From: Symbiobacteriaceae bacterium
Lineage (GTDB): Bacteria > Bacillota > JAAYKD01 > WRDA01
Direction of reading: 5' to 3'
DNA length: 34,631 nt
Assembly (NCBI GenBank): GCA_009779515.1
Contig: WREE01000001.1
Location: 1 to 34,631, forward strand
Under the pieces are notes generated by a model that was given only the letters and a program-made list of their open reading frames with translations, made no database searches and was not told the DNA's origin. The position numbers were made by a program, and so were the translations under genes. Positions within the stretch are counted from its first letter, which is position 1; each line of letters starts with the position of its first letter. Shown here in pieces: positions 6,833 to 31,285 of this stretch.

Positions 6833-6836
6833 AACA

Positions 6837-8333: not shown

Positions 8334-8341
8334 GATAATGG

Positions 8342-9484: not shown

Positions 9485-9488
9485 TTGA

Positions 9489-10069: not shown

Positions 10070-10383
10070 ACTTCCTCCCGCCTATCTTCCAGCTTCACCG
10101 GACGAGTATGGTGGGGGAGGATATAGCATTTGGAAAGGACTACCACTGCCAGGAAGGAGATCATGGCATAGACAATGGCCACATCCAGCATCGCGGCTTC
10201 TCCCAACAGGCAGGACAAAATAGCTATAAGGATAATGCCTTTGGTGCAGATTAAGTTGATGGCGATGAGCCGGTCGGTAAAACGCGGTCCCAAAATGGCT
10301 CGGATTAAGCTGATAAAAATTAAAAGGACTAGCAGGGTAGCACTAAAGATAAAAAGAGTGTTGTAGGCTACACTTAGGTTCAC
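10066..10383 (-). CDS. mrpF: MrpF/MnhF subunit.
   Basis: 105 aa. RAILGPRFTDRLIAINL and LDVAIVYAMISFL fit the MnhF pattern. Confidence 0.85.
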   Translation of the reverse strand: MNLSVAYNTLFIFSATLLVLLIFISLIRAILGPRFTDRLIAINLICTKGIILIAILSCLLGEAAMLDVAIVYAMISFLAVVVLSKCYILPHHTRPVKLEDRREEV

Positions 10384-11863: not shown

Positions 11864-13754
11864 AAGGATAGGAAGCCCTGAAGAGCTGCGTGAGCTCCAA
11901 GTCAAGCTGGCACCTCGCACCGCCCTACGCCTTTCCCCGGCTGAAAGAGAAGCCCTGGGAATTCCCGCTGCCGAGAAAATGAATATTCTGGTCTGCGGCG
12001 GACCTGCCTGCAAATCTACTGACAGCGACCATATCATTACCCAGCTTAGGGTAGAGTTGCAAAAAGCCGGTTTAGCCGAGGAGGTTAAGGTTGTACCTGC
12101 CGGTTGTATGGGCTACTGCGCCCAGGGACCGGTGCTCAAAGTCCAGCCAGACAACACCTTTTATGTTCAAGTTAAAGCTACCGATGCTGCCGAAATAGTG
12201 CAAAAGCATATTTTAAACCACCAGTATGTGGAACGCCTCATGTTTCATCACCCCGCCAGCGGAGCCCCCTGCCGTCAAGAAGAAGATATCCCCTTCTTCC
12301 AGGGTCAGGTGCGCATCGCTTTGCGTAACTGTGGGGTAGTAGACCCGGCGTATATCGAAGACTATATCTCTCTCAAAGGTTACCAGGGATTAGTTAAAGC
12401 CATGGAGATAGGACCCGATGCCACCGTGGCGATGATTAAGCAGGCTGGTTTGCGGGGGAGAGGCGGTGCCGGCTTCCCTACCGGCACCAAGTGGGAGTTT
12501 ACCCAAAGCTATACAGCTACACCCAAGTATGTGGTTTGTAATGCCGACGAAGGCGACCCCGGTGCTTTTATGGACAGGTGCATTATGGAAGGCGACCCCC
12601 ACTCCGTGCTGGAAGCCATGGCTATCGCCGGGCACAGTATCGGCGCCGCAGAAGGGGTTATCTACGTTCGTGCCGAGTATCCTCTGGCGGTGCAATCACT
12701 GCAAACAGCTATCAAGCAAGCCGAAGAGTTCGGCTTATTGGGAGAAAACATTCTAGGCACAGGCTTTAACTTCTCCATCCGCTTAAACCTGGGGGCAGGT
12801 GCCTTCGTGTGTGGGGAAGAAACGGCTTTGCTATCTTCTATTGAAGGTAACCGTGGTGAGCCACGGGTGCGTCCCCCCTACCCGGCAGAGAAAGGGCTCT
12901 GGGGGCAACCCACCGTGTTAAACAATGTGGAAACTTACGCCAACGTACCTGCCATTATGCTGCGTGGCGCCGCATGGTTCTCCTCATATGGCACCGCTGG
13001 CAGCAAAGGGACAAAAGTCTTCGCTCTGGCAGGTAAAATTAATAATATTGGGCTCATTGAAGTCCCTATGGGGACTACCCTCGACCATATCATCAACCAT
13101 ATCGGAGGCGGCATTCAAAACAACCGGGCGTTCAAGGCAGTACAGACCGGCGGTCCTTCGGGAGGCTGCATGCCCACCGCTCTGCTGCAAACCGAAGTGG
13201 ATTACGAATCTCTCACCCAAGCAGGCTCCATGATGGGCTCGGGAGGGATGATCGTTCTAGACGAAGACGACTGTATGGTTAATATTGCCAAATACTTCTT
13301 GGAGTTTACCGTAGATGAATCCTGCGGTCGCTGCACCCCGTGTCGTATTGGCACCAAGCGACTCTACGAAATGCTGGAGCGTATTACCACCGGTAAAGGG
13401 ACGAACAAAGATATTGTCGATCTCCAGGAGTTGGGGGACATCATTCGAGATTGTTCCCTCTGTGGTTTAGGGCAAACGGCGCCTAACCCGGTTATCTCCA
13501 CCTTGCGTTATTTCAAAGATGAATATATTGCCCACGTGGAGGAGCATCGTTGCCCAGCTTTAGCTTGCACCGAACTGCTCACCTTCACCGTAGTGGCAGA
13601 TAAGTGCATTGGTTGTACTGTCTGTGCCCGTAACTGCCCGGCAGATGCCATCAGCGGTGTGGTGCGGGCTGCTCACACCATCGATCCCGATAAATGCGTT
13701 AAGTGCGGCATCTGTCTCGATAAGTGCCCCACCAAAGCTATCATACGCTACTAA
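11856..13754 (+). CDS. hydB: [FeFe]-hydrogenase NuoF-like flavoprotein subunit (HydB type; NADH/FMN-binding, multiple Fe-S clusters).
   Basis: Start chosen at ATG 11856, after an AAAGGAGG RBS (MSKRIGSPEEL..). It has an N-terminal 2Fe-2S domain (VCGGPACKS..CMGYCAQGP), GRGGAGFPTGTKW, ESCGRCTPCR, and a C-terminal 2x[4Fe-4S] ferredoxin domain (CIGCTVCARNCP, CVKCGICLDKCP). Confidence 0.92.
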   Translation: MSKRIGSPEELRELQVKLAPRTALRLSPAEREALGIPAAEKMNILVCGGPACKSTDSDHIITQLRVELQKAGLAEEVKVVPAGCMGYCAQGPVLKVQPDNTFYVQVKATDAAEIVQKHILNHQYVERLMFHHPASGAPCRQEEDIPFFQGQVRIALRNCGVVDPAYIEDYISLKGYQGLVKAMEIGPDATVAMIKQAGLRGRGGAGFPTGTKWEFTQSYTATPKYVVCNADEGDPGAFMDRCIMEGDPHSVLEAMAIAGHSIGAAEGVIYVRAEYPLAVQSLQTAIKQAEEFGLLGENILGTGFNFSIRLNLGAGAFVCGEETALLSSIEGNRGEPRVRPPYPAEKGLWGQPTVLNNVETYANVPAIMLRGAAWFSSYGTAGSKGTKVFALAGKINNIGLIEVPMGTTLDHIINHIGGGIQNNRAFKAVQTGGPSGGCMPTALLQTEVDYESLTQAGSMMGSGGMIVLDEDDCMVNIAKYFLEFTVDESCGRCTPCRIGTKRLYEMLERITTGKGTNKDIVDLQELGDIIRDCSLCGLGQTAPNPVISTLRYFKDEYIAHVEEHRCPALACTELLTFTVVADKCIGCTVCARNCPADAISGVVRAAHTIDPDKCVKCGICLDKCPTKAIIRY

Positions 13755-13769
13755 CGGAGGTGAAGAGCC

Positions 13770-15533
13770 ATGAATAATAATGACGAAGTAAAAAAGGTTA
13801 ACCTAACCATCAACGGTACCGCTATCGCGGTGGCGCCGGGCACTGTTTTATTGGCGGCAGCTCATCAAGCCGGGGTGCATATCCCCTCCCTTTGCTATCT
13901 TAATTCCGATGAGTTCCAATACCGCAACAGCGTCGGCTCTTGCCGTGTCTGTATGGTGGAAGTGGTAGGCAGACGCGGCTTAGTTCCCGCTTGCTCCACC
14001 ACCGTCTACGAAGGTATGGTTGTGCGCACCGATTCTCTCAAAGCAATCCGTGCGCGGCGCACCATGGTGGAACTGCTTCTTTCCAACCACCCCAGCGACT
14101 GTCTAATTTGTGAACGTAACGGTAACTGTCAGCTGCAACAGATGGCTGCCGATATGGGGATTCGCAGCATTAAATACAAGGGAGCTGTCTCTTCCCACCC
14201 TAAAGATATCGAAAGCTTCTCCATTGTCCGCAACCCGGACAAATGTATTCTCTGCCGCCGTTGCGAAACCATGTGCAACTCTATCCAGAGTGTGGGGGTC
14301 TACTCCGCTATCGGGCGCGGCTTCGAGACCACCATGGGCACTGCTTTCAACAAGCCGATTATCGAAACCACCTGCACCTTCTGTGGACAGTGCGTTTCCG
14401 TTTGTCCTACCGGTGCTCTTTCGGAAGTGGATGCCACTGAAGAGGTCTGGAAGCTACTGCAGGCTCCCGGTAAAGTGGTTATCGCTCAAACCGCTCCTGC
14501 TATCCGGGTGGCGTTAGGGGAAGAGTTTGGCATGGAGCCAGGCTCGGTAATCACCGGCAAGCTAGCGGCGGCTCTGCGTCGTTTAGGTTTCGCCAAGGTC
14601 ATGGACACTAACTTCACCGCCGATGTCACCATCATGGAAGAAGCCAGCGAGTTTGTTCACCGCTTCCAGCACGGTGGCAAGCTGCCTTTACTCACCAGTT
14701 GCTGCCCTGCCTGGATTAAATTCTTTGAGCATCAGTTCCCGGATTTGCTGGATGTCCCTTCCAGTTGTAAATCACCCATGGAGATGATGGGCGCTCTCAT
14801 TAAGAGCTACTACGCCGAAAAAGCCGGCGTCGACCCCCAAGACATTGTCGTGGTTTCGATTATGCCCTGCCTGGCGAAAAAGTTTGAAGCGGCTCGTCCG
14901 GAGCTGGTTTCATCCAAAGGGCATTCCGATGTAGATATTGTCCTCTCCACCAGGGAGCTAGCGCGTATGATTCGGGAAGCCGGTATCGAATTCCTCTCCC
15001 TCCCCGATGAAGAGTATGATAACCCCTTAAGCGACAGCACCGGCGCTGCCGATATCTTTGGCACCACCGGCGGGGTTTTAGAGGCAGCTTTACGCACCGC
15101 CTACAAAATGGTTACCGACGAAGATTTACAAGCTGTGGAGTTTCAAATGCTGCGGGGTGTCGACGGAGTGCGCGAAGCCGAAATACCTTTTGGCAACACC
15201 AAAGTCAGGGTGGCTATTGCCAACGGTTTGGCTAACGCCCGAGAGCTGCTCCAAAAGGTGCAGTCCGGAGAAGTGGAATACCATATCATCGAAGTTATGG
15301 CCTGCCCCGGCGGCTGTATCGGTGGCGGTGGGCAGCCCTACACCAAAGGCAATATGGAAATCCTGCGCCGTCGCGCCGCAGGGTTATACGCTATCGACAG
15401 CGCCAAAACTATCCGCCGCTCCTACGAAAACCAAGCCATGCTCACTATGTATGCTGAGTATATTGGGGTGCCTTACGGGGAAAAAGCCCACGAGTTGCTG
15501 CATACCTCTTATGTGCGTCGGGAAGATAAGTAA
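13770..15533 (+). CDS. hydA: [FeFe]-hydrogenase catalytic subunit (H-cluster domain with N-terminal 2Fe-2S and 4Fe-4S domains).
   Basis: 587 aa with H-cluster signatures TSCCPAW, MPCLAKKFE and EVMACPGGCIGGGGQP. The N-terminal Fe-S modules include CRVCMVEV, CILCRRCETMC and CTFCGQCVSVCP. Confidence 0.95.
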   Translation: MNNNDEVKKVNLTINGTAIAVAPGTVLLAAAHQAGVHIPSLCYLNSDEFQYRNSVGSCRVCMVEVVGRRGLVPACSTTVYEGMVVRTDSLKAIRARRTMVELLLSNHPSDCLICERNGNCQLQQMAADMGIRSIKYKGAVSSHPKDIESFSIVRNPDKCILCRRCETMCNSIQSVGVYSAIGRGFETTMGTAFNKPIIETTCTFCGQCVSVCPTGALSEVDATEEVWKLLQAPGKVVIAQTAPAIRVALGEEFGMEPGSVITGKLAAALRRLGFAKVMDTNFTADVTIMEEASEFVHRFQHGGKLPLLTSCCPAWIKFFEHQFPDLLDVPSSCKSPMEMMGALIKSYYAEKAGVDPQDIVVVSIMPCLAKKFEAARPELVSSKGHSDVDIVLSTRELARMIREAGIEFLSLPDEEYDNPLSDSTGAADIFGTTGGVLEAALRTAYKMVTDEDLQAVEFQMLRGVDGVREAEIPFGNTKVRVAIANGLANARELLQKVQSGEVEYHIIEVMACPGGCIGGGGQPYTKGNMEILRRRAAGLYAIDSAKTIRRSYENQAMLTMYAEYIGVPYGEKAHELLHTSYVRREDK

Positions 15534-15540
15534 CCACCTG

Positions 15541-15563
15541 AAACCGGTTTGTCTTCAGCCTCA
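15541..15563 (+). repeat. Family 2 ends-only junction (left terminus AAACCGGTTT joined directly to right terminus GTCTTCAGCCTCA).
   Basis: The 23 nt AAACCGGTTTGTCTTCAGCCTCA combine the first ~10 nt and the last ~13 nt of the full copies at 31314-31481 and 19771-19944, with nothing in between. Confidence 0.6.
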
Positions 15564-15605
15564 GCCGTTAGAGAGCCATACGCTCTCTAACGGCTTTGTG
15601 GTTTT
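15564..15605 (+). terminator. Rho-independent terminator of the hyd operon.
   Basis: A 13-bp perfect stem, GCCGTTAGAGAGC / GCTCTCTAACGGC (15564-15576 / 15582-15594), with a 5-nt loop, followed by TTTGTGGTTTT. Confidence 0.85.
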
Positions 15606-15767
15606 GGGGGTTTGTTAGCGGAAGATCACGACGAGCAAGATTACAGGGATATGATAAAGAAATTGAAAATATATATAATTATCTTTGATGATTTACAAAA
15701 TATTGTTATCGCTATGCACCTTAGATATTTATTCTTACGCGGTAAAAAATTGAAATTTTAAAAAATG

Positions 15768-15796
15768 TTGAAATGTCTACAAAAATACTGTAAAAT
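15768..15796 (+). promoter_or_regulatory. Sigma-A-type promoter candidate for the first MCP gene.
   Basis: TTGAAA (15768-15773), a 17-nt spacer, then TAAAAT (15791-15796), within a very AT-rich 235-nt spacer. An AAGGAG RBS lies at 15824-15829. Confidence 0.5.
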
Positions 15797-15841
15797 GGTT
15801 TTACCGCTTCCGAAAATTTTAATAAGGAGCAAAATTCATCT

Positions 15842-17650
15842 ATGAAAAATCTCAAAATCAGTCACAAAATTCTGTTGTCTTTCGGCATAATAACGCTAGT
15901 GATTCTCGCGTTTTCCGTTTTTGTAGTCATTTCCAACCTGTCTACCAACGCCAACGCTTATACGATGCGTTATGAGATGCAGATGCAAGCCCTGGGCACT
16001 AGTTTAGTAGATGATTTTTCGCAGGCGAACGCTGGGGTCAATATCATCAACTTTTCTTTTGATAAAAGGGAGTTTGACAGTATTTTAACGAATATTTCCT
16101 CCAGTCAGCTCGTGCTTCAGCAAATGAAAACCTATATTGCCGATCATCGGGAATTGGCTGTCTATCGACCTGAAGTGGATGCGGTATCCAATAGCATAAA
16201 CATATGGAGTAAAAACATAAATGAAATTCTTGCTCTTAGCCAAGAGCTGGATGCGATCATCGAGGGAGCTCACAACAATCAGCGAGTACTCACCAACCAA
16301 AGTGCAGGTGTTTTAGATTATCAAATGGAGCTTTCCCGGGAGGAAGCATATCAAGATATTGACGAAGCGGCTCGGATTCGTCGCGTCGACCGCGTGGAAC
16401 AGGGCGTGGACATTTCCAATAGACTTAATGCTATTGGGGCTTCATTTGAACTAATGTTTCGGTCTCTCGATATCTCGCGCATCTATGAAGATATGGCGTT
16501 TCTCGAAGAAACTGTTATTATTTTAACAGAGTTTCGTGATGGAAGCGCTCTGCAGTACAACATCGATACCTCTACCGCCATGCTGGAAGCTCTCGAGGCT
16601 TATCGAGGGAACATTGCTAGTTTCTTGTCGTGCTTTTCGAAACGAACTAACCTAACGCAAGCTGGGATATTATACAGTGCAGATGCCCTGACAGCTGTTC
16701 ATAATTTGGTTTCTGCGGTGGAAGCGTCTTCCATAAGACATGCAGACGAAACCATCAAAATAACATCAACGCTGCGCATTGTTTCATTCGTCATTGTCAT
16801 CGCTGGGGTTGTCATATCCATGTTACTCGCCTTCTACATATCCGATCTCATTAGCAAGCCTCTGATAAATGCCACGGAAAAGTTGCGGGAAGTCAATGAT
16901 AATATTGGCAGCGCCGCCAACGAACTCTCGGATGCTTCAAATTCCCTTGCTGAAGCCAGTTCGGAGCAAGCTGCCTCTATTGAGGAAACATCTGCCACCA
17001 TGAACCAGACAGCGTCCATGATCTTACAGACCGTGGAAAACACTTTCCTAGCCAAGGAACTGGCTAATGAAGCTGGCATAACCATGTTAGAAGCCTTGGG
17101 TCACGCGGAAGAGCTGATCAAAAGTATGAGCGAGCTAAGCGCCAGTTCATCTGAGATCGGCAAAATAGTCTCGACCATTTCATCTATATCGTTTCAGACC
17201 AATATCTTGGCGCTCAACGCCTCAGTGGAAGCTACTCGCGCCGGTGAGGCGGGTCGAAGCTTCATGGTAGTGGCGGAGGAGGTGCGTTCCCTGGCGCAAC
17301 AGAGCGCCCAGATGGCCAATGATACTGACGCTATTATTAAAAATAACAATGCGCTTACCCTAAAGAGTGTGGATGACTCGAATTCTGTGAGCCAAATAAT
17401 GGACGCCGTAGGGGAAAAAGCCCGGAAAACGGCGGAACTTTTAAGTGAAATATCCATTGCTTCGGAGGAACAGTCCCGGGGCATCCAGCAAATCAATCTT
17501 GCCATGTCCGAGATGGAGAAAGCGACACAGTCCAGTGCGGCTATATCCGAGGAGTCGGCAGCGGCGGCTATCGAACTGCAAAGTCAGACCTTCAGCTTGC
17601 AACAGATATATGAAGATATCTGTATACTGGTCTATGGTAAAAAACAATAG
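15842..17650 (+). CDS. Methyl-accepting chemotaxis protein with a helical extracytoplasmic sensor region, two TM segments and no obvious HAMP domain.
   Basis: 602 aa. The signalling hairpin motif is [39 protein letters not shown]1 lies near residues 10-32 and TM2 near 310-335. GC content is visibly lower than in neighbouring operons. Confidence 0.9.
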
Positions 17651-17735
17651 GGCTCGTTAAATATTGGGTACGAGTAATATGTCGACGTAATAAATTGCCG
17701 AAGACCACCATCAATGAGTAGTGACGTTAATTGCT

Positions 17736-17926
17736 ATAGACGCGCATGAACTGCGTTCACCCAAAAAATGACAGATGCGCGCGTCTATTCGCCACGGGAA
17801 CCGGGGCGCAGGAGCGGAGCTCCTGTAAGCGCAGGCGGGCTTTGCCTGCCGTAGCGCGGGGTCCCCGCGCACATGTGCGTGGGGTGGGAGCATCCAGGGG
17901 TTTGGGGGCGGGTAGCCCCCATCTAT
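17736..17926 (+). repeat. Structured repeat family 1, copy 2, 41 nt upstream of the second MCP gene.
   Basis: See copy 1. Hairpins lie at 17736-17788, 17811-17823, 17831-17849, 17863-17884 and 17904-17920, and there is a perfect palindrome GCGCGGGG-T-CCCCGCGC at 17854-17870. Confidence 0.85.
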
Positions 17927-17967
17927 CAGAGTAGTAATGGAACACTATTTGGAAAGAAGGTGTGTTA

Positions 17968-19770
17968 ATGAGCATCAAGAGTCTGGGTCTGAAAGTGTCC
18001 CTCATAGTATCGCTTATGATCGCCGTGATTATCGGAGTCATCGTATATATTGTATCTGTCCAGAGTGATGTTTTGGTAACTGAGCTGGTGGCAGAAGACG
18101 CCAGGGCAAGTAACTACTCCTTTACTAAGGAGTTGGAGATTCTTAAATCCAGCGCCTTGATCAATGCGGAAATTATAGCCCGGTCGCCCAAAGTTGTCTC
18201 GGCAGTAATCGATAAAGACTATGGGCAGCTCCGGGAAGCTCTCTTGGAGTTGGCTTGGGATTTGGATTTAGTTACGGTATGCGATGTAAGTGGGGCTGTA
18301 ATTGCACGGATGCACGACCCTTTGAAAGACGATGTTGTCTTGAACCAAAAAGCGCTTACCACTGCACTCAACACAGGTAGAGGTATGAGTACCATCGAAA
18401 AGGGAACTGTCGTGGGCTTGTCCACACGGGGGAGCGCTGTCATAACCGATGATCGAGGAAATATCCTGGGAGCGCTCACCTGCGGTCACGATTTGTCAAA
18501 TCCCAAATATGTCGAAGAGATCAAAGAATTAAGCAACTGTGAAGCGACAATTTTTGACGGAGACACGCGCTTAATGTCTACCCTCTTCGATGAAACAGGT
18601 AGCCGCGTCGTGGGTACCACAGCGAGCCCTGCTGTCGTCAACATAGTTATACACCAGAGAAAAGAATACTCGGCGCCCATCACCCTGTTCGGACATGAAT
18701 ACTATGCCCATTATTCGCCCCTTATAGTTGATGGCACTGTTATTGGCATGTTGTTCACGGGCATAAGCATCGACAGTGCCCTGGCGGAACAACGGGCTAT
18801 GATGAACATGGTGCTATGGGCTGGGATCATATGCGGTATCGTATGTATCTTACTGGTTATTCTCTTCAATATCTTTGCGGTGAGTAGACCGCTGATGAAA
18901 ATAGGCGTTTTTGCAGATAAAATACGTAACGGAGATTTAGATATATTGTCCTCCGTCACATCCACCATCGGTATCCGCTCCTCCGACGAAATTGGTGTTC
19001 TGGCTAGGGCATTAGAACAGGCGTATGAGCAACTGCGGGGATATGTGGGTGAAATAAACTTACAACTGCAGTATATTGCCGAGGGGGATCTGGCAACTGA
19101 AAGCGTATATAATTTCCAAGGGGATTTTGTCCTTATTAAAGACTCCATTAATAATCATATCCGCCAGTTAAACCATACTATGGCCGAAGTCAATAGCTCA
19201 TCCTCGAATGTATCTTCCGGTGCGAAGATGGTGGCAGACGGTGCCCAATTTCTGGCGCAAGGCGCTATGGAGCAAACTACGGTTATTGAAAGCAACATCT
19301 TGGTAAACACCGAAAAAGGGAACCGCCAAATGAAGGAAATGACCGTTGCTGTTAAGGATATAAACCAGGCCAACGAGGATATAAAAATGGCTATGAAGTT
19401 AATTGACGACATAGCTATCCAAACAAACATCTTGGCGTTAAATGCCTCGATTGAAGCGGCCAAAGCCGGTGAATATGGTAAGAGCTTTGCCGTGGTAGCG
19501 GAGGAAGTTCGTAACCTTGCTGCCAGAAGCGCGGAAGCCGCTAGTAAAACCGCTTCTTTAGTCGAAAACTCTATCGAGAAAGCCCAATTGGGTTCTCGTA
19601 TTACCCATGAAACCACCGAGAGTTTTGCCATGATTATGTCCGGTATCAACAAAGTAGCCCAAATCGCCCAACAAAACAGTGCGACTGCTGAGGAACAGGC
19701 TGCTGCCTCAGAAGAATTAAGTGGACAATCTTCTGTTTTAGAGCAATTAATCAGACAGTTTAAACTTTGA
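17968..19770 (+). CDS. Methyl-accepting chemotaxis protein with a Cache-like extracytoplasmic sensor, a HAMP domain and an MA signalling domain.
   Basis: Start placed at ATG 17968, 7 nt after AGAAGG; the track's GTG 17962 is 2 codons upstream. The signalling motif is [42 protein letters not shown]-like segment follows TM2 ([20 protein letters not shown]). The periplasmic region has the alternating beta/alpha pattern typical of Cache domains; this part is a tentative call. Confidence 0.88.
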
Positions 19771-19944
19771 AAAGCCGGTTTCAGGTTTGTTGTTTCCTAC
19801 CTAAATTACCTTAAAGGGACAAAAGTAACCGCTTTTTGGCATCACATACCCGGTAAAAAGCAAACTTAATGGCAAGAACATAACTTAATTCGCCGAAGAG
19901 CGCACTCTTAAAGGTGAGAGGCTGAAGACTTTGTCTTCAGCCTC
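19771..19944 (+). repeat. Intergenic repeat family 2, copy B.
   Basis: It starts directly after the MCP stop codon and ends with the perfect 12-bp hairpin GAGGCTGAAGAC-TTT-GTCTTCAGCCTC (19918-19944). It aligns with copies A and C. Confidence 0.9.
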
Positions 19945-19972
19945 TCGTGGTATCTCCGACAAAAAACGACAG

Positions 19973-20001
19973 TTGACATTCTAACGGCGGGTGGTTATAA
20001 T
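19973..20001 (+). promoter_or_regulatory. Consensus sigma-A promoter of the pyr operon.
   Basis: TTGACA (19973-19978), exactly 17 nt of spacer, then TATAAT (19996-20001). Confidence 0.75.
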
Positions 20002-20077
20002 TCCCGAGATATAACCTTTGCGACCAAAAATTTTGCAAGGGGGTTTAAGGACATATGTGGTCAGGCCTGCCGTCACT

Positions 20078-20116
20078 ACCGCTTCCGTGATATTTTTACG
20101 GAATCGGTATTTTTTT
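20078..20116 (+). terminator. Intrinsic terminator within the pyr leader (attenuator candidate).
   Basis: ACCGCTTCCGT (20078-20088) pairs with ACGGAATCGGT (20098-20108), giving 11 bp with 1 mismatch and a 9-nt loop, followed by A then T7 (20110-20116). It lies between the promoter and the pyrB start. Confidence 0.65.
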
Positions 20117-20151
20117 GTGCCACGGCAGTCCAGCGATAGGGGGGAATAGCC

Positions 20152-21087
20152 TTGCGACGGTTACCGCGTAAAGATATTTTAGGTTTGGAAGAAATCTCCA
20201 CCCAGGAGATGGATATTATTTTGGCTACTGCCCGCAGCATGAAGGAGCTGGTGCAATCTCCCGTTAAGAAGGAAAGCTCCTTGAAGGGTAAAGTGGTTAT
20301 CAACCTTTTTTATGAGCCTTCCACCCGCACCCGTTCCTCCTTCGAGTTGGCAGGTAAATATTTAGGTGGCGATGTTATCAATATCACCACCGCCACCTCC
20401 AGCGTGGTTAAGGGGGAGTCTTTGCTGGATACTGCCCGTACGATTCTCATGATGGGGTGTGACGTTTTAGTTGTGCGCCACTCCTCTTCCGGCTCCCCGC
20501 ATTTTCTAGCGCAGCATCTTTCCTGCAGCGTCATCAACGCCGGCGACGGTATGCACGAACACCCCACCCAAGGTTTGCTGGATCTTTTTACCATTCGCGA
20601 CCAGCTAGGCTCCGTTGCTGGTAAAAGGGTGGTTATTCTGGGGGATGTAGCCCACAGCCGAGTGGCACGTTCCAATATTTGGGCGCTGACCAAATTTGGC
20701 GCTAAGGTAACTGTGTGCGGTCCGAAAACCTTAATACCTGTCGAAGTTCGCTCTTTGGGGGTGGAGGTTAGCTATGATGCCGATACTGCTTTAGCCGAAG
20801 CAGATGTCATTAATGTCCTGCGCTTACAACTGGAGCGGCAACATAAAGGACTCTTTCCCAGCATTAGGGAGTATCATGCTGGCTGGGGCTTAAACCAGCG
20901 CCGCCTTAATTTAGCCAAGCCGGGCGCCTTAGTGCTCCATCCGGGACCGATGAACCGGGGAGTGGAAATAAGCAGCGACATCGCCGATGGCGACCAGTCT
21001 TTAATCGAAGAGCAAGTAACCAATGGAGTGGCTATCCGCATGGCGCTACTCCATCTACTGGTGGGGGAGGTGGCACGGGATGAGTAA
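20152..21087 (+). CDS. pyrB: Aspartate carbamoyltransferase catalytic subunit.
   Basis: 311 aa with a TTG start after a GGGGGG RBS. Motifs are STRTR, HPTQ and [12 protein letters not shown]. Confidence 0.95.
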
Positions 21088-22441
21088 GCTGAGCTTGACG
21101 GTCTTTCCCAACTACCAGGAAGCTGCCGGGGAGCTAACCAGCTTTTCCCCCTCCCTTCTCTTGCAAAAGGGGCGTCTGCTAGACCCCCAGCAGGGGCTGG
21201 ATGCTGTTGGGGATGTGCGCCTTCAGGGAGATAAAATTGTCCAGGTAGGGAATAACCTCCCCCCTCTGGCTGGGGAACGGGTAGTTTCCTGCCAAGGGCT
21301 AGTTCTGGCTCCCGGTTTTATCGATATGCATGTGCATTTGCGTGAACCCGGCTATGAATACAAAGAGGATATCGCTAGTGGCAGCCAGGCAGCCTTGGCA
21401 GGGGGTTTTGCCCAAATATGCTGTATGCCCAACACCTACCCTATCTGCGATAACCGCAGTGTGGTGGAGTTTATTAAACAACAGGCGGCTCATGCCAATG
21501 GCGCTATCGTCTGGCCGATAGCAGCTATTACCAAAGGGGAAGCAGGATACGAGCTCAGCGAAATGGTCGAGCTGCGCCAGGCTGGGGTAGTCGCTTTTTC
21601 TGATGATGGTCGCCCGGTCATCAACGGCGAGGTTATGCGTAACGCTTTAGAGTATAGCTCCATGTTGGGGGTGCCGGTGATCAGTCACCTGGAAGACCCT
21701 TATCTCAGCGAAGGTCGAGTTATGCACCACGGCGCTGTCTCCACTCGGCTAGGGCTTAAAGGTATCCCCGCCGCGGCGGAGGAGATTATGGCTTACCGGG
21801 ACTTGCAACTGGCTAAACTGGTGGACGGGCAAATCCACCTGGCGCACCTTTCTGCCGCTGGCACGGTGGAGCTACTGCGTCAGGGTAAGGAGCGGGGCAT
21901 CAAAGCCAGCGGCGAAGTGACCGTACACCATTTGCTGTTAACCCACGAAATGGTGGCGGAGAGCGGCTACGACAGTAACACCAAAGTTAACCCACCCTTA
22001 CGTACCGAGGAAGACCGCCAGGCTTTGCTGGTGGGGCTTCGGGAAGGGGTGATCGATGCTATTGTCACCGACCATGCACCCCACCACTTAGACGATAAAC
22101 GTATGGATTTCGACGGAGCGGCTTTTGGTATTTCCGGGCTGGATGTTGCCGTAGCTCTGATCTTAAGCCGATTGGTCAGCAGGGGAGAACTCTCCTTAGA
22201 GCGCATGATAACCGCTTTCACCACCGGACCTGCCCAGATCCTAGGCTTAACCCCTCCCAGTCTCACCCCAGGCAGTAGCGCGAATATCACTGTTTTAGAC
22301 TTGCAACTAACCCAGGAGATTGCAGCTACCGCCCTTAAGTCTAAAGGAAAAAATATGCCCTACCTGGGCTGGACTCTCACCGGTTGGCCGGTGATGACCA
22401 TCGTTCGCGGGAAGCTATATGCCCACCCCAGTTTAGCTTAA
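21080..22441 (+). CDS. pyrC: Dihydroorotase.
   Basis: Start placed at ATG 21080, overlapping the pyrB stop (ATGAGTAA). Motifs [10 protein letters not shown] and the later metal-binding histidines ([14 protein letters not shown]) are present. Confidence 0.93.
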
Positions 22442-22469
22442 GAGGGCGTAATAAAGGAGGAGAGTATCC

Positions 22470-23549
22470 ATCGACGGCATTTTACAGTTAGCAGATGGCA
22501 CCTGCTTTCGCGGCAAACTGCACCAAGCTGTAGCTCATCCCACCCCGGGTGAGGTGGTCATCATCACCCATATGTCCGGCTATTACGAATATATATGCGA
22601 CCCCTGTTCGGCAGGGTTAATCCTTGTCTTTGCTTACCCCCTTATCGGCAACTACGGCGTGGCTCCTCCCGCCGGAGCCCAAGGGTACGCTCAGGCGGTG
22701 GTGGTGCGGGAAAGCTGTTCGCACCCCAGCCATCATCTGACAACTTCTTCCTTGCCCGCCTTTCTTGCCACTCAGGGTATCCCTTTGCTCAGCGAAGTAG
22801 ATACCCGGGCGGTTACCCAGCATATCCGCATCTCAGGTGAAGTAAGGGGTGTAGTAGGCGCTCCAGATAGCCAGCCTCCTGTGTCTTACCCCGAGGCAGC
22901 TCTGCCACTAACTCCTACCTCATGGGAGGAGGAGCCAGTCGCAGTTAAATCTGACCTCCCGCCACTAGCCGTTCTCGACTTAGGTGCGGCGGCAGCTATC
23001 TGTCAAGAGCTAAAACGCTTGGAGTATCCTCTGGTGGTTATCCCTGCGACCCAACCAGTTGCCAGCCATTTACCTTCGGAATGCACGGCTCTCATCATCT
23101 CCGACGGTCCCGGGGATCCTGGCGTCTATCGCCACCTGCTGCCGGAGTTGCAGCAGCTGACTACTTGCCTCCCAGTTTACGCCTTTGGCTTGGGGCACCT
23201 CCTGTTGGCACTGGCTCTGGGGGGGGATTGCTACCGTATGCCTTGCGGGCACCGGGGCAGTAATTATACCGTGCAAACGCTGCCGCCGGTTACCTTGGGG
23301 GATGCCACCCTGGAGCCTATGCATATCACCAGTCAAAACCATGGCTACGCCGTGCTTGAATCCAGCCTTTTAGGTACCCAGCTGGAAGTGAGCCACCGCG
23401 AACTGCACGACGGTACCGTCGAAGGGATGTGGCACCGTAGCTTACCCCTCTGGTCGTTGCAATACCTACCCGACTGCTCTCGGCTCACCTTAGACCAAAC
23501 GGAGGAGTGCCGTGCTTTTTGGAGCTATATTCGGAAAGTAGGTTCCTAA
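22470..23549 (+). CDS. carA: Carbamoyl-phosphate synthase small-subunit (CarA) homolog. It is full length, but all three glutaminase catalytic-triad positions are substituted and there is no canonical start codon.
   Basis: The reading frame is open from 22455. The CarA N-terminal homology (ILQLADGTCFRGK..GEVVIITHMSGYYEYICDP..YPLIGNYGV) begins upstream of the track's GTG 22554. The only start-like codon at proper distance (9 nt) from the AAAGGAGG RBS (22453-22460) is ATC at 22470. At the active site, the canonical GICLGHQ reads AFGLGHL (GGC at 23187-23189 replaces Cys), and the canonical HPE reads LPD (CTA at 23466-23468, GAC at 23472-23474). Confidence 0.8.
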   Translation: MDGILQLADGTCFRGKLHQAVAHPTPGEVVIITHMSGYYEYICDPCSAGLILVFAYPLIGNYGVAPPAGAQGYAQAVVVRESCSHPSHHLTTSSLPAFLATQGIPLLSEVDTRAVTQHIRISGEVRGVVGAPDSQPPVSYPEAALPLTPTSWEEEPVAVKSDLPPLAVLDLGAAAAICQELKRLEYPLVVIPATQPVASHLPSECTALIISDGPGDPGVYRHLLPELQQLTTCLPVYAFGLGHLLLALALGGDCYRMPCGHRGSNYTVQTLPPVTLGDATLEPMHITSQNHGYAVLESSLLGTQLEVSHRELHDGTVEGMWHRSLPLWSLQYLPDCSRLTLDQTEECRAFWSYIRKVGS

Positions 23550-23576
23550 GCCGAATATGAAAGGGGAAGATGAGTT

Positions 23577-26500
23577 ATGCCCCAGGATCTCCGCCTCAAA
23601 AAGGTTCTTGTTATCGGTTCCGGTCCGATTGTCATTGGTCAGGCAGCAGAGTTCGACTACGCAGGCACCCAGGCGTGTCGCGTCTTGCAGGAGCAAGGAG
23701 TCGAGGTTGTTTTAGTCAACAGCAACCCTGCCACCATCATGACCGATCCCGAAGTGGCTCATCGCACCTACCTAGAGCCTCTCAGCCCAGAGTTGATTCG
23801 CCAGATTATCGCCAAGGAGCGTCCCCAAGGCCTTTTAGCCACTTTAGGGGGGCAAATTGGTTTGAATATGGCTTTACTACTGGGTAACGATGGCACTCTG
23901 GAGAGTTATGGCGTGGAGCTGCTGGGCACCCCTCTGGAAGCTATTCGTCGTTCCGAAGATAGGCAGCTTTTTAAAGAGTGCATGCAACAGGTAGGGCAGC
24001 CGGTGTTGGAAAGTTACACCGTGCAGACCCTGGAAGAAGCCTTCCCCTTAGCCGAACTGCTAGGTTACCCCTTAATCATCCGCCCCGCTTTTACCCTGGG
24101 AGGTACTGGCGGCGGTTTTTGTTATAGTGCCCAGGAACTTAAGGAGATGCTCCCCATCGGCTTAGCAGCCAGCCCTATCCAGCAATGCCTCTTAGAGCGC
24201 TCTCTGCAGGGCTGGAAAGAGATTGAGTACGAGGCGGTGCGAGATAAAAACGATACCTGCCTGACTATCTGTTCTATGGAAAATGTCGACCCCTTAGGGA
24301 TTCACACCGGAGATTCCATTGTCGTCGCCCCCACGCAAACTTTAGACCATCAGGATGCCACCATGCTGCGCCATGCCGCCATCGCCATCATCCAGGCTTT
24401 GGGTATTGAAGGGGGGTGCAATGTCCAGTTTGCGCTCAATCCCCAGAGTCGAGAGTATTATGTCATTGAAGTTAACCCCCGGGTTTCCCGCTCCTCGGCG
24501 CTGGCTTCCAAAGCCACGGGGTATCCCATTGCCCGTGTCGTCTCCCTTATTGCCCTGGGTTTCACTCTGGATGAAATAACCAACCCCATAACCGGACACA
24601 CCACGGCTTGCTTTGAACCGGCTATCGACTATATCGTCTGCAAGGTTCCCCGCTGGCCTTTCGATAAATTTCGTATCGCCAACCGTAAACTCTCTACCCA
24701 AATGAAATCTACCGGCGAAGTTATGGCTATTGGTCGCTCCTTTCCGGAAGCGCTGCAAAAAGCGGTACGCTCCTTGGAGCAAGGGTATGAGGCTCTCTAC
24801 AGCCAGGATATTGCCGCTTACAGCACCGAGGAGCTCCAGGAGGGGATATCCGAAGGGAACGACCTGCGCCTCTTCCTGATGATGGAAGCGTTGCGCCGCG
24901 GGGTTACCCTGGCCGAAATTGGGGAGGCTTCCCAAATCGACCCCTTCTTTATTCAGGAAATAAACCGGATATGCCTTATGGAACAAATTATACAGCAACA
25001 ACCTCTTACCCGTGACCTTCTGTGGGAGGCGAAGCGCCTGGGATTTGCCGATAGCGAAATAGCTAGGCTGACCGGGAGTAGTAAGGAGCAGGTACGCCAA
25101 ACCCGGGAAGGTTGGGGTTTAAAGCGTGTCTACAAAATGGTAGATACCTGCGCCGGGCTCTACCCTTCGGAAGCTCCCTACTACTACTCCACCTTCGAAG
25201 AGTATGACGAGTTAGTCCCTTTAGGCAACCAGACAGTGGTAGTTATCGGCTCTGGTCCTATCCGCATCGGTCAGGGGGTGGAGTTCGACTACTGCTCGGT
25301 GCATGCCGCTCAGGCTTTACAGGAAGCTGGCTACCAAGCGGTAATGATCAACAACAACCCCGAAACCGTTTCCACCGATTTTAACGTCTCCGACCGCCTA
25401 TTTTTTGAACCACTGCAAGAAGAAGAGGTCTTGGATATCCTTTGGCGGGAGCAACCGGTGGGGGTGCTAGTCCAGTTTGGCGGACAGACGGCCATCAACT
25501 TAGCATCAGCCATTCACGAAGCTGGTTTTACCATCCTCGGCTCCTCTTTGGATACCATCGACTTAGCGGAAGACCGCGCTCGTTTCGAAGCCATGCTGGA
25601 GGAGCTTGCTCTGGCACGCCCTCCCGCTCGGGGGGTACGTTCCCTGGCGGAGGCCTATCAGGCAGTGGAAGTTATCGGTTACCCGGTTTTGGTGCGCCCC
25701 TCCTATGTGCTGGGCGGGCGGGGGATGGAAATATGTCGTTCTCCCGAAGAATTGGAGGGTTTTTTAGAGGAAGCAGCGAAAATCACTCCTAACCACCCGG
25801 TACTGATCGACCGCTACATCCCTGGGAAAGAGTTAGAGGTAGATGCTATTGCCGACGGGGAGCATGTAGTAGTGGTAGGGATCATGGAGCATATCGAGCG
25901 CGCCGGTGTTCATTCCGGGGACTCCCTGGCAGTTTACCCCTGGTCTGACCTGGAACCCTGGCTGATTGAGGAGGTCGTGGAAGCTACTAAAAAGCTCAGC
26001 CTAGCCCTGCAAGTCAAAGGCTTAATCAATATCCAGTTTGTCGCCCATGAGGAGAAGCTTTATATCCTGGAAGTTAACCCCAGATCCTCCCGCACCGTCC
26101 CCTTTTTATCTAAGGTTTCCGGGCTGCCTATGGTACGGGTCGCCACCAAGGTTGCCTTAGGCCAGAGCTTGCGGCAGCAGGGGATTACCCGAGATCTCTG
26201 GCATAAAAATGGCTTCAGTGCCGTTAAAGCCCCGGTCTTTAGCTGGAGTAAGCTACGCGGGGTGGAGATTGGCTTAGGACCGGAAATGAAGTCCACCGGG
26301 GAAGTTATCGGCATGGGGATTAGCCGGGAGGAAGCGCTGGCACGTGCCTTTTGGGCTTCCGGTTGGAAGCCTGGGAAGAATAAAGCCCTTTTAGCCACCA
26401 TAGCCAACCGAGACCGCAAGGAAGCCATTCCCCTTATCAAGCTGCTCTGGCGAGAAGGATACGAAATCTATGCTACCCCCGGCACCGCCGTCGACCTGGA

Positions 26501-26886: not shown

Positions 26887-27747
26887 ATGCAGTATAAAGC
26901 TACCGTCTATGCCAACGACAGGCTCTTTCCGGAACCTATTCCCCACCCTTTGCAGCAGCTTGCACCTTGTTCGGATAGGGGTTCTCCTTATCCGGAGCTG
27001 TGGCGTCTCACCCTCCATGCTCCGGAGCTGGTCTCCCTCCTTAAGCCAGGTCAATTTTTACATCTTCTTACCCGTCCCCTCTTGAGCCACGACCCTCTGT
27101 TACGTCGCCCCATCAGCGTGGCTTCCTGGCATGAAGAACACGGCACCTGTAGCCTCTACTATCAGGTAGTAGGGCGAGGTACGGCTTATCTCAGTCAATT
27201 GCAGGCTATGGAAAGGCTGGATTTGCTGGGACCTTTGGGGCAGCCATACCCCATGCCACCTACCGGGCAACAAAGCGTGGCTCTGGTCGCCGGTGGGATT
27301 GGCATACCTCCCCTCTTCCCTTTAGCCAAAACTTTACTGCAGAAAGGGCATAAGGTCACCTTATTTTTAGGCGCTCGCACCCGGGGGCAGCTTCTCATGC
27401 TGGGAGAATTCCGTCAGGCAGGGGTTCCCTACTTCGTGACCACCGACGATGGCAGCGCCGGTCGCCTGGGGCGGGTGGTGGACGATTTTCACGATAAACT
27501 CCTACACTCCCATCACTTCGACTATATTTATACCTGCGGTCCTAAGGGGATGTTGCAGGCAGTGCAGACCATAACAGCGGCAGCGGGGCTTTCCGGGTGG
27601 CTGATTATGGAGAGCCATATGGCTTGTGGTCTGGGGGCTTGCCTCGGTTGCACCATTCGGGTGCAAGAGGGCGAAGGTTGGCGCTACGCTCTCCTTTGTC
27701 AAGAAGGAGTTGCCTTTGCGGTAGGGGAGGTTTGTTTCGATGTCTAA
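26887..27747 (+). CDS. pyrK: Dihydroorotate dehydrogenase B electron-transfer subunit (FAD, [2Fe-2S]).
   Basis: 286 aa with the RRPISV FAD motif and the C-terminal cluster motif MACGLGACLGC..C. It overlaps pyrD by 8 nt. Confidence 0.9.
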   Translation: MQYKATVYANDRLFPEPIPHPLQQLAPCSDRGSPYPELWRLTLHAPELVSLLKPGQFLHLLTRPLLSHDPLLRRPISVASWHEEHGTCSLYYQVVGRGTAYLSQLQAMERLDLLGPLGQPYPMPPTGQQSVALVAGGIGIPPLFPLAKTLLQKGHKVTLFLGARTRGQLLMLGEFRQAGVPYFVTTDDGSAGRLGRVVDDFHDKLLHSHHFDYIYTCGPKGMLQAVQTITAAAGLSGWLIMESHMACGLGACLGCTIRVQEGEGWRYALLCQEGVAFAVGEVCFDV

Positions 27748-28690
27748 TAGCCCTGCTCAAGCTGGTGTCACCCCGGATCTGGCAGTTACCCTGGGCACTA
27801 GGCGCCCTTTGCGTCTGAAAAACCCTGTTACCACCGCTTCTGGCACCTTCGGTTACGGCGTGGAGTTTGCTCCCTACATGGATATCACCGCCCTGGGGGC
27901 CTTAACCACCAAAGCGCTAACTTTGGAAGCCCGAGAGGGGAACCCAGGTCGCCGCTTGGTGGAGACTCCCGCCGGGATGCTTAACTCTATTGGGCTTATG
28001 AATGCCGGCTTAGAGCATTTCCTCCGGGAAACTCTGCCTCAGCTCCGGCAGTTTGGCGATTTGCCTATTATTGTTAACATTAGCGGGCATACGGTTTCCG
28101 AATATGCCACCTTAGCCGAACGTCTCAACCAGGAACCGGGTATAGCTGCCTTGGAGGTAAATATCTCCTGCCCTAATGTGGAAAATGGGTTGTTGTTCGC
28201 TTCTTTGCCCGAAAGCGCCGCCCTGGTTACCCGAGCGGTGCGCGAAGTCTGCGATTTGCCTCTTTTTATTAAACTTACCCCTAATGTTTCCGATATTGCT
28301 CCTATCGCTAAGGCGGTGGAGGAAGCTGGTGCGGACGGAATATCACTTATCAACTCCGTGCTGGGGATGGCTATAGATATTCAGACGCGTCAGGCTATTC
28401 TCCAAGCTACCTTCGGCGGTCTTTCAGGTCCGGCGATTCGCCCCATCGCTTTAAGAATGGTTTATCAAGTTTACCAGGCGTGCTCTTTGCCTATTATCGG
28501 TATGGGCGGTATTACCACCTGGGAAGATGCTCTGGAATTTATTTTTGCCGGCGCCAGCGCAGTGGCTATTGGCACGGCCAATTTGGTTAACCCCCGGGCA
28601 ACGGTGGAAGTTATCCAGGGGCTTGGGGAGTATTGTCAATACCATAAAGTTGCCTGCTTGGCGGAGCTGATTGGAGCGGCGCACCGCTAG
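27740..28690 (+). CDS. pyrD: Dihydroorotate dehydrogenase (class 1B) catalytic subunit.
   Basis: 316 aa with motifs NPVTTASGTFGYG, NISCPN, GGLSGPAIRPIAL and GMGGI. Confidence 0.95.
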   Translation: MSNSPAQAGVTPDLAVTLGTRRPLRLKNPVTTASGTFGYGVEFAPYMDITALGALTTKALTLEAREGNPGRRLVETPAGMLNSIGLMNAGLEHFLRETLPQLRQFGDLPIIVNISGHTVSEYATLAERLNQEPGIAALEVNISCPNVENGLLFASLPESAALVTRAVREVCDLPLFIKLTPNVSDIAPIAKAVEEAGADGISLINSVLGMAIDIQTRQAILQATFGGLSGPAIRPIALRMVYQVYQACSLPIIGMGGITTWEDALEFIFAGASAVAIGTANLVNPRATVEVIQGLGEYCQYHKVACLAELIGAAHR

Positions 28691-30235: not shown

Positions 30236-31285
30236 ATGCATCGCCCCAACCGATGGTATATCTTATCCCTTTGGCTGCTCATTTTTATTCTTTGGGGGAG
30301 CAGTATCACTGCCCAGGCTACAGCTACCTCCCCTGAGGTAGTAGGACGCCGTGTGGAAGCGGAGCTGGCGAATATCAGCATGTATATCAACGGGGGAGAG
30401 GTAGCGGTGGCTCGTTCCCGCTACCCTCTGCTGCTTTATAACGATATTACCTACCTACCCCTTACCTGGTACCTGGGGCAAGCTCTGGGGCTGGAGGTTA
30501 GCTACGATTATGCCAACAACATCCTAAAGGTGCGTCCGGATAACCTTATCCCCCTTTTGTCCCTGCGTCAGGAGCTGCTGGCACCGGAACAACCGAGTTT
30601 ACAACTGGGCAGTAAGGTGCAAGCCACCACCGTAGCTTACACGGTATATATAGGCGAGGAAGAGGTTACCAGCAGCGCCACATGGCCGCTCCTCAGCTAC
30701 CAGTATATTACCTACCTCCCCTTAACCTGGCACTACGCGTACGAACTGCTTAACATTAACTACCAATTTAGCTCTTTTCCCCAAAGCAAACTAACCCTCT
30801 CCCGTTCTCCCGGCAGTGCTGGGGTGCAGCAAGCTCAACTGGAGCGTATATTAAACTCTGCTCGCACCAAACTGCTCTCCGAGCCCTTTACCAGTACGGT
30901 GCAAACCTTTCGAAGCGGTCGTCTGATTGCCGAAGAAGTCAAACTCTTCGACCCCACCCTGCAAACCAACAACCCAGCCTACCCCTCACTGCTGCCGCAA
31001 ATCCCTGCTCTGGATTTACGTACCCCACCTGGGGGATGGCAGGTTTCCTTTGCCAACGGCGATTGGTTCTTAACATTAGACCATCTTACCGTGGAGCTAG
31101 ATAACAGTAGCGCTGGGAGCGCTTGGTTATACACCTTCACCTTCAATATGGATGACTGGTCGCTCTTTTCGTTGGAAGCCCGGGAGGTTTCCCTGCGTCA
31201 AGGGGAGCTTGCCCCCAACGCCAACGACACCACCATCATGACCTGGATTGCATATACGCCAAACACCCCCCTTAGCTTACCATAA
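30236..31285 (+). CDS. Secreted hypothetical protein with two internal repeats that resemble copper-amine-oxidase N-terminal (stalk) domains.
   Basis: 349 aa with a signal-peptide-like N-terminus (..ILWGSSITAQA). The duplicated module is YINGGEV..YPLLLYNDITYLPLTWY / YIGEEEV..WPLLSYQYITYLPLTWH. It is translationally coupled to the LCP gene (2-nt gap, GGAGG RBS). Confidence 0.7.
   Translation: MHRPNRWYILSLWLLIFILWGSSITAQATATSPEVVGRRVEAELANISMYINGGEVAVARSRYPLLLYNDITYLPLTWYLGQALGLEVSYDYANNILKVRPDNLIPLLSLRQELLAPEQPSLQLGSKVQATTVAYTVYIGEEEVTSSATWPLLSYQYITYLPLTWHYAYELLNINYQFSSFPQSKLTLSRSPGSAGVQQAQLERILNSARTKLLSEPFTSTVQTFRSGRLIAEEVKLFDPTLQTNNPAYPSLLPQIPALDLRTPPGGWQVSFANGDWFLTLDHLTVELDNSSAGSAWLYTFTFNMDDWSLFSLEAREVSLRQGELAPNANDTTIMTWIAYTPNTPLSLP

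Follow-up and report, generated by a model that had tools for sequence, protein, structure and literature searches.

A CarA homolog without its catalytic triad, probably kept as a partner of CarB in a bacterial pyrimidine operon

Background

We study the carA homolog of a pyrimidine operon in a Symbiobacteriaceae bacterium, carried by a stretch of 34,631 nucleotides of DNA (contig WREE01000001.1) that we call the window. The gene stands beside carB, which encodes the large, or synthetase, subunit of carbamoyl phosphate synthetase (CPS). It keeps its full length, and its product has lost the Cys-His-Glu triad of the glutaminase. We hold it probable that this pseudo-glutaminase is kept by selection as a non-catalytic partner of CarB, and that the CPS of the operon is ammonia-dependent: in that case the enzyme would correspond to vertebrate CPS I, in bacterial form and encoded by two genes. 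A first reading of the window, referred to below as the original prediction, had proposed such an analog of CPS I. The proposal is supported by the loss of the triad in five orthologs, by their open reading frames (ORFs), by the constraint on their N-terminal domain, and by a normal CarB.

Loss of the glutaminase triad

The two genes and the positions discussed in this section are listed here; residues are numbered as in E. coli CarA throughout.

22470..23549, + strand: carA homolog without glutaminase triad (359 codons and a stop; PF00988 107.8 bits, PF00117 75.9 bits)
22605..22607, + strand: Cys (TGT) at the Ser47 position, N-terminal domain
23187..23189, + strand: Gly (GGC) for the nucleophile Cys269
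23199..23201, + strand: Leu (CTC) for Gln273, GHQ becoming GHL
23466..23474, + strand: Leu-Pro-Asp (CTA CCC GAC) for His353-Pro-Glu355
23481..23489, + strand: Arg-Leu-Thr (CGG CTC ACC) for Pro358-Gly359-Pro360, ammonia-tunnel loop
23577..26786, + strand: carB, CPS large (synthetase) subunit (NF003671 1455 bits)

The mapping was done by phmmer alignment to the structures 1c30_B, 1a9x_B and 1m6v_B. It pairs E. coli PVFGICLGHQLLALA with PVYAFGLGHLLLALA of the window, which places Gly at Cys269 and Leu at Gln273, and it pairs FSFQGHPEAS with WSLQYLPDCS, which places Leu at His353 and Asp at Glu355. Two MAFFT alignments, one including 116 other CarA sequences and one 148, have identical triad columns. 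The loss of the triad, first read by eye, is thus found again by each method, with the codons GGC (23187-23189), CTA (23466-23468) and GAC (23472-23474) reading as had been claimed. The possibility that the triad is located elsewhere in the protein is ruled out, since the three independent alignments agree. The frame is open over 359 codons, with no stop or frameshift, so the gene is indeed full-length.

Two further residues are replaced in the window protein, Lys202 by Ala and Asn240 by Asp. In the 116 canonical sequences, Ser47, Lys202, Gln273, Pro358 and Gly359 are 100% conserved; they belong to the glutamine site or to the small subunit's part of the ammonia tunnel, and the positions known to form these two sites are all among those changed. 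Since the nucleophile Cys269 has become Gly, the general base His353 has become Leu, and Ser47, Gln273 and the PGP loop are replaced as well, the residues indicate that this CarA can no longer hydrolyze glutamine. The profile comparison suggested with the original prediction gives 75.9 bits for PF00117. Against TIGR01368, the profile of glutamine-hydrolyzing CarA, the protein scores 239.5 bits where 307.35 are needed; a looser model, NF009475 (carbamoyl phosphate synthase small subunit), gives 247.3 bits and is passed, its cut-off being 221. The same prediction held that the N-terminal domain and the rest of the amidotransferase positions were well preserved. This is true of the N-terminal domain, where 33 of 42 conserved columns are kept, and not of the glutamine amidotransferase (GATase) domain, which keeps 40 of 63.

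How far could chance account for the choice of positions? Taking as reference the 106 columns with at least 95% conservation among the 116 canonical CarAs, the window protein differs at 33. If these 33 changes are placed at random, all three triad residues are affected with P = 0.028, and nine active-site or tunnel positions with P = 1e-5, a value that refers to a list of sites chosen after seeing the data. An intact triad is nearly universal in three less biased samples of other CarAs. It is found in 41 of 41 carAB loci from genomes, and in 116 of the 119 best word-based database matches, the window's own protein excluded. Among the matches listed by a metagenome search it is found in 78 of 80 loci, the exceptions being one C-H-D triad and a gene truncated where its contig ends; that search used a profile made from the clade alignment described below, and its listed matches are canonical CarAs at 31-40% identity, which serve as a background sample only. 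A metagenome sequence (L132, AMWB02044735.1) encodes an otherwise canonical CarA that keeps Cys and His and has Asp at 355. Because this C-H-D protein is otherwise intact, the change of Glu355 to Asp may be tolerated when it occurs alone.

A clade of open and constrained genes

The nearest protein in the databases (P0002), labeled by NCBI as coming from a Symbiobacteriaceae metagenome-assembled genome (MAG), is encoded on a contig of 54.9 kb (L001) with the genes pyrB-pyrC-carA-carB-pyrK-pyrD-LCP and M14 peptidase arranged as in the window; hydABC adjoins pyrB, inverted with respect to the window. A HMMER profile search adds three proteins, P0121, P0122 and P0123 (contigs L062-L064), from the same gene block. 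In the window and in the four orthologous contigs, carA lies 0-27 nucleotides upstream of carB within the pyr operon. The five proteins form the clade to which we refer in the sequel.

All five have Gly at position 269 and Cys at position 47, and none retains Lys202, His353 or the PGP loop. The search for the same substitutions in related genomes, proposed with the original prediction, thus finds four other contigs that share the Gly at the nucleophile and the absence of His353. The residues found at 353 are L, F, S, Y and L, and those at 355 are D, D, D, A and K. Position 293 is Ser or Asn, Gly243 is Glu in two members, position 273 reads L, H, Q, L and Q, and position 313 reads G, G, L, G and A; Asn311 and His312 are invariant. 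The positions of CarA that line the tunnel (Gly293, Ala309, Pro358, Gly359) are degenerate in the clade, and Gly359 is lost in its five members as well as in the independent cases P0005 and P0006. The clade also has a variable insert in the GATase domain, between GHRGSNYxV and TSQNHGY (window 23270-23320, residues ~268-284): its length is about 15 residues in the window and reaches about 35-40 in P0002 and P0121, whereas P0122, P0123 and canonical CarA lack it.

The window protein nests with the CarAs of bacterial pyr operons, and the triad is intact in its sister clade, P0003/L150, with the same gene order around P0003. An ancient, separate family of paralogs was considered and rejected, since the clade nests beside these intact pyr-operon CarAs.

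Within the clade, identity is 70-78% for CarB (first 500 residues), 60-73% for PyrC and 36-45% for CarA; the last value is not above the identity to the intact-triad outgroup L150. In order to calibrate these figures we used 820 pairs of ordinary carAB loci, taken from a search of genome contigs with CarB and consisting of distant loci, at most 57% identical, from Chloroflexota and others, with no relative of the window organism among them. They yield an identity of CarA equal to 0.70 times that of CarB plus 10.6 (standard deviation 3.15). For the window and L001, whose CarBs are 72% identical, the predicted identity of CarA is 61% and the observed one is 44.7% (z = -5.2).

Nei-Gojobori counts were made for the window against L001, L063 and L064. 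The proportion of synonymous differences, pS, lies between 0.75 and 0.90 for every gene of the operon, which is saturation, and between 0.79 and 0.86 for carA. The proportion of non-synonymous differences of carA, pN, is 0.41-0.46, with a distance dN of 0.58-0.71, well below saturation. This dN is about three times that of carB (0.21-0.23), and is similar to that of the functional pyrK (0.49-0.58). In the clade, pyrK evolves nearly as fast as the dead carA (45-51% identity), and pyrB, carB and pyrD are far more conserved.

The carA frames of the clade are all open, with 352-414 codons, and 61 columns are invariant among the five. Because neutral drift would not keep a frame of 350-400 codons in five lineages, nor 61 invariant columns, these counts point to relaxed but real purifying selection on carA. 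The constraint is unevenly distributed: identity in the clade is 45% in the N-terminal domain and 38% in the GATase domain, reversing the order of canonical CarAs, whose mean pairwise identities are 45% and 51%.

Fold of the small subunit and state of CarB

The AlphaFold (AF2) model of the carA product has a mean confidence (pLDDT) of 82.7 and a pTM of 0.84. Superposed by Foldseek, it reaches TM scores of 0.79-0.80 with E. coli CarA (1a9x_B, 1c30_B), and of 0.80-0.82 with the N-terminal moiety of human CPS1. The parts of low confidence are the interdomain linker, the variable insert (pLDDT 55-58), and the loop that formerly held His353, Glu355 and PGP. The model thus predicts that the CarA fold is retained.

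The adjacent CarB keeps 205 of 214 highly conserved columns. In the alignment to 1bxr_A it retains Cys232, Ala251 and Ala314 of the ammonia gate, and its allosteric domain aligns to E. coli CarB like that of a normal bacterial enzyme: this CarB is apparently fully functional. The stop of carA and the start of carB are 27 nucleotides apart, and the two ORFs are separate, not fused.

The start codon

Two features define the beginning of carA.

22453..22462, + strand: Shine-Dalgarno sequence AAAGGAGGAG for carA; orthologs have GGAGG-like sites at equal distance from ATG or GTG
22470..22472, + strand: ATC at the ancestral start-codon position, from the ortholog alignment

As first remarked in the original prediction, no ATG, GTG or TTG is available at the expected place. 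The frame has TAA TAA at 22449-22454, and the first such codon thereafter is GTG 22554, 28 codons past ATC 22470, which itself stands 9 nucleotides after the end of GGAGG. The near-cognate codons between the stops and GTG 22554 are limited to ATC 22470, ATT 22479 and CTG 22518. The 28 codons upstream of GTG 22554 specify the strands with which the N-terminal domain begins, a conserved part that reads ILQLADGTCFRG...GEV, with Leu5, Leu7, Gly10, Phe13, Gly15, Gly27 and Glu28 invariant across the aligned CarAs; initiation at ATC 22470 would yield the N-terminal peptide (M/I)DGILQLADGTCFR. Orthologs start with ATG in L001, L062 and L063, and with GTG in L064, 4-9 codons ahead of LxLxDG. Because these starts and their GGAGG-like sites align there, ATC is placed by the alignment as the occupant of the ancestral start position, and it is peculiar to the window strain, orthologs using ATG or GTG.

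Public gene calls give three N-terminal truncations: GTG 22554 with 331 amino acids (JGI), CTG 22518 with 343 (NCBI), and ATG 22572 with 325 (ENA). All three leave out these conserved opening strands. The stop of pyrC lies 28 nucleotides upstream of the ATC, which might initiate weakly, possibly aided by coupling to pyrC. Alternatively, expression may have been recently reduced or lost in the window strain.

Other small subunits without the triad

A HMMER profile search was run over 1.84 billion cluster representatives, with a profile built from triad-less proteins, so that its ranking is enriched and does not measure a frequency. Of 151 aligned sequences (the best matches and E. coli CarA), 55 are without Cys269 or His353, the change being mostly from Cys to Gly. 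On a rough neighbor-joining tree the triad-less sequences fall in about 21 groups, with a Fitch minimum of 16 changes, figures that long-branch attraction makes approximate.

The contexts of these genes differ. On L066, a triad-less carA belongs to a full pyr operon with carB. On L068 (Logan DRR066660, positions 8001-9146; protein HHW08947.1 of a Bacillota MAG), a further carA of independent origin, with Gly, Phe and Glu in the place of the triad, is found in the order pyrR-like/pyrB/pyrC/pyrF/carA/pyrK/pyrD/pyrE, with no adjoining carB: from this order, either carB lies elsewhere, or the dead CarA would act without CarB. On L069 (Logan SRR32069045, positions 4978-6012), Cys has become Gly and Glu has become Gln, His being kept, and the operon reads argJ-argD-carA-carB...argF-argG-argH. 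Because this carA belongs to an arginine operon, loss of the nucleophile is evidently not confined to CPS of the pyrimidine type.

Two cases come from cultured anaerobes (the P0174/P0201 pair): Thermosyntropha lipolytica DSM 11003 (WP_073092557.1) has Gly, Asp and Glu, and Desulfonispora thiosulfatigenes DSM 11270 (WP_084053652.1) has the change of Cys to Gly only. With such species at hand, the use of ammonia by a CPS with a dead CarA is directly testable. Both proteins are named "glutamine-hydrolyzing" in RefSeq, and databases label triad-less CarAs likewise; with such labels, metabolic reconstructions would assign the wrong nitrogen donor. The source run of another independent case, P0006 (SRR8925759), was used in a study of anaerobic digesters.

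It is tempting to conjecture that loss of the CarA glutaminase with retention of the dead subunit is a recurrent adaptive route to ammonia-dependent synthesis of carbamoyl phosphate in anaerobic bacteria, the pseudo-subunit being an obligatory structural or allosteric partner of CarB that perhaps shapes the entry of external ammonia. We advance this tentatively, and would put its chances a little short of even. If true, such a route would overturn the textbook glutamine dependence of bacterial CPSs, in a case of convergent evolution with vertebrate CPS I.

Ammonia as nitrogen source, and alternative explanations

The mechanism that we propose for the window enzyme is the following. The small subunit would bind the adjacent, conserved CarB, and free ammonia would be the nitrogen source. 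The role of the dead subunit could be the assembly, stabilization or activation of CarB. The old tunnel from the glutaminase site would be bypassed, ammonia arriving at the carboxyphosphate site another way, as proposed for CPS1; the degenerate tunnel-lining positions of CarA suggest that the old route is not needed. We infer ammonia dependence from the loss of the triad combined with the biochemistry of the E. coli enzyme and of CPS1, and we likewise infer that the window CarA still binds CarB.

The biochemical part of the argument is as follows. Glutamine hydrolysis cannot proceed without Cys269 and His353 (PMC6245113); CarB alone yields carbamoyl phosphate from ammonia (PMC6245113, PMC8121099); and E. 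coli enzymes whose tunnel is blocked or perforated no longer use glutamine but still use ammonia (PMC4655335, citing Huang and Raushel 2000). Given these three facts, glutamine use should be impossible for the window enzyme, and free ammonia required. CPS1 is ammonia-specific through a change of Cys to Ser, and its change of Gly293 to Gln blocks the old tunnel, an alternative surface path having been suggested (PMC4655335).

Several points weigh against a retained, ammonia-dependent enzyme. Ammonia use by the E. coli enzyme needs very high, probably unphysiological concentrations (PMC6245113); the window CPS would therefore require either surroundings rich in ammonia or a CarB that has adapted. 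Carbamoyl phosphate may come from another carA or carAB, intact and located elsewhere in the genome. With its ATC start, the gene of the window strain may yield little of the protein, or none. The gene order of L068 indicates that partnership with a neighboring CarB is not universal for triad-less CarAs. Finally, the calculation of dN/dS that had been proposed can be carried only part of the way: pN (0.41-0.46) is below pS (0.79-0.86), but no numerical ratio is obtained, since dS is saturated and the only close relative, L065, is 99.98% identical. The carA of this relative is identical to that of the window, and among the three members of the P0005 cluster a single non-synonymous base is the only difference.

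The first alternative, which we consider unlikely, is that carA is a decaying pseudogene, and that a second intact CPS, for instance an arginine-type carAB, supplies carbamoyl phosphate. Many Firmicutes do have two CPS enzymes, and Thermosinus carboxydivorans appears twice among our matches (P0011, P0105). The window strain has no canonical start codon, and its ATC is compatible with a very recent silencing in one strain; CarA evolves about three times faster than CarB, and its identity is 16 points below expectation. However, five orthologs are open across saturated synonymous divergence, with pN of 0.41-0.46 and 61 invariant columns; the fold is predicted to be intact, conservation favors the N-terminal domain, and the orthologs have normal ATG or GTG starts with Shine-Dalgarno sites. 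Neither neutral evolution nor a disrupted frame, two marks of a unitary pseudogene, is found here: pN is below pS, and 359 codons are open. As to a further mark, the loss of translation signals, the Shine-Dalgarno sequence is strong, but the start position is occupied by ATC. Early decay, held out as an alternative in the original prediction, thus fails as the history of the gene, which is open and constrained in five lineages despite saturated synonymous sites.

It is quite unlikely, in our view, that the protein left the CPS complex for a regulatory or structural role unrelated to CarB. The persistence of the triad-less carA of L068 with no carB adjoining it would fit such a departure. In the window and the four orthologous contigs, however, carA is kept 0-27 nucleotides upstream of carB, and the N-terminal domain is the better conserved half. 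The E. coli small subunit contacts CarB, touching its carboxyphosphate and oligomerization domains (PMC6245113).

The protein might still be an amidotransferase, with a rewired active site, in which for example the Cys at the Ser47 position serves as nucleophile, or with a nitrogen donor other than glutamine. The Cys is present in all five clade members and in two unrelated triad-less proteins, P0206 and P0211, and Asn311 and His312 are invariant in the clade. This proposal is nevertheless very unlikely: positions 353 and 355 are variable, leaving no conserved substitute for the general base; the glutamine-pocket positions 243, 273 and 313 vary as well; the GATase domain is the less constrained half; and position 47 is occupied by Ala, Thr, Ser or Asn in further triad-less CarAs of independent origin.

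Sequencing or assembly errors, as the source of the triad substitutions and of the ATC, can be dismissed with near certainty; the original prediction had argued against a sequencing error from the three independent substitutions. A second assembly contig (L065, ENA ERZ27257304 k141_3627471), 99.977% identical over 12.8 kb (window 12572-25375), agrees in ATC, GGC, CTA and GAC, its three mismatches lying outside carA. Orthologs at 36-45% identity share the losses, and at least nine functional positions are changed. Nothing was found in favor of such errors, although the contig is metagenomic and there is no culture to sequence again.

Returning to the pseudo-glutaminase retained as partner of CarB, a lineage that keeps a dead CarA beside a normal CarB points to some bacteria feeding free ammonia into pyrimidine synthesis. 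It also suggests a function of the small subunit beyond making ammonia, such as stabilizing, activating or gating CarB, a role that in E. coli is hard to tell apart from catalysis.

The operon and its surroundings

On the + strand of the window, the pyrimidine operon reads pyrB-pyrC-carA homolog-carB-pyrK-pyrD, followed by a gene of the LCP family. The features that complete those given above are:

19973..20001, + strand: promoter-like site upstream of pyrB (TTGACA-17-TATAAT, a 12/12 consensus match only)
20152..21087, + strand: pyrB, aspartate carbamoyltransferase catalytic subunit (NF002032 400 bits; 79% identity to the L001 ortholog)
21080..22441, + strand: pyrC, dihydroorotase (TIGR00857 403 bits; the L065 gene call corresponds to 21080-22441)
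26887..27747, + strand: pyrK, dihydroorotate dehydrogenase electron-transfer subunit (NF000799 182 bits)
27740..28690, + strand: pyrD, dihydroorotate dehydrogenase (NF005574 406 bits)

The start of pyrC is uncertain, its ORF opening at 21023 and its homology beginning near 21150. The total of promoter-like sites in the region is not above that of shuffled sequences. The leader of pyrB holds, at 20083-20113, a hairpin followed by a T-rich stretch, which may be an attenuator; an Rfam scan of the window matched no RNA family, the PyrR-binding attenuator included, and no pyrR gene was found within the window.

Genes hydCBA, of the bifurcating [FeFe]-hydrogenase type, adjoin the pyr operon in all clade contigs (regions compared: window 11351-19770, L001 3210-7376). 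Their strand is opposite to that of the operon in L001, L063 and L064, and they are co-oriented with pyrB in the window, where two methyl-accepting chemotaxis genes (15842-17650 and 17962-19770) stand between hydCBA and pyrB. Further upstream, on the - strand (3268-10865), is a seven-gene cluster for a cation:proton antiporter of Mrp/Mnh type, with three Proton_antipo_M subunits and 4L-like, MnhB, MnhG, MrpF and MnhE subunits. After the LCP gene, an ORF of 349 amino acids (30236-31285) has no Pfam or NCBIfam match, and is 31% identical to its L001 counterpart of 404 amino acids.

Comparison with known systems

According to the literature, every type of CPS other than CPS1 uses glutamine (PMC4655335), and glutamine dependence has been found in each eubacterial CPS examined to date (PMC8121099). 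We found no description of a bacterial triad-less CarA in the open-access literature.

The canonical CPS of Firmicutes pyr operons (PyrAA/PyrAB, TIGR01368) shares with the window enzyme its operon position, its domain architecture and its fold. The window CarA differs from it by the absence of the catalytic triad and of the glutamine site, and by a score below the TIGR01368 cut-off.

Mutants of the E. coli enzyme offer a second comparison: C269S (1C30), H353N (1A9X) and G359F (1M6V) bear on positions 269, 353 and 359, all of which are changed in the window. These are laboratory point changes, whereas those of the window are natural, multiple and lineage-wide, and come with a relaxation of the GATase domain. 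Rubino et al. are said to have made C269G and C269S in 1986, with ammonia-dependent activity retained.

Vertebrate CPS I (5DOT/5DOU) is alike in that a two-domain module of CarA type, without the catalytic Cys, is kept beside an intact synthetase. The tunnel position Gly293 is altered in both, to Gln in CPS1 (PMC4655335) and to Ser or Asn in the window clade. The differences are several. CPS I is one fused polypeptide, whereas carA and carB of the window are separate genes. Human CPS1 has Ser for Cys, and keeps His and Glu in an incomplete triad, whereas the window protein replaces all three along with glutamine-binding residues. CPS I depends on N-acetylglutamate and works in the urea cycle, whereas the window gene belongs to a pyrimidine operon. 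The origins are also independent, the nearest relatives of the window protein being bacterial pyr-operon CarAs with an intact triad (P0003/L150).

The last comparison is with an orphan subunit, CarB2 of Bacteroides thetaiotaomicron; in the literature we found no other proposal of an ammonium-dependent CPS in bacteria. Like the window enzyme, it is a bacterial CPS proposed to use ammonium directly, and it is important when ammonium is plentiful (PMC8121099). However, CarB2 has no small-subunit partner, while the window keeps a dead small subunit, co-transcribed and constrained. Since this dead subunit is retained under constraint, the window CarA would have a non-catalytic role.

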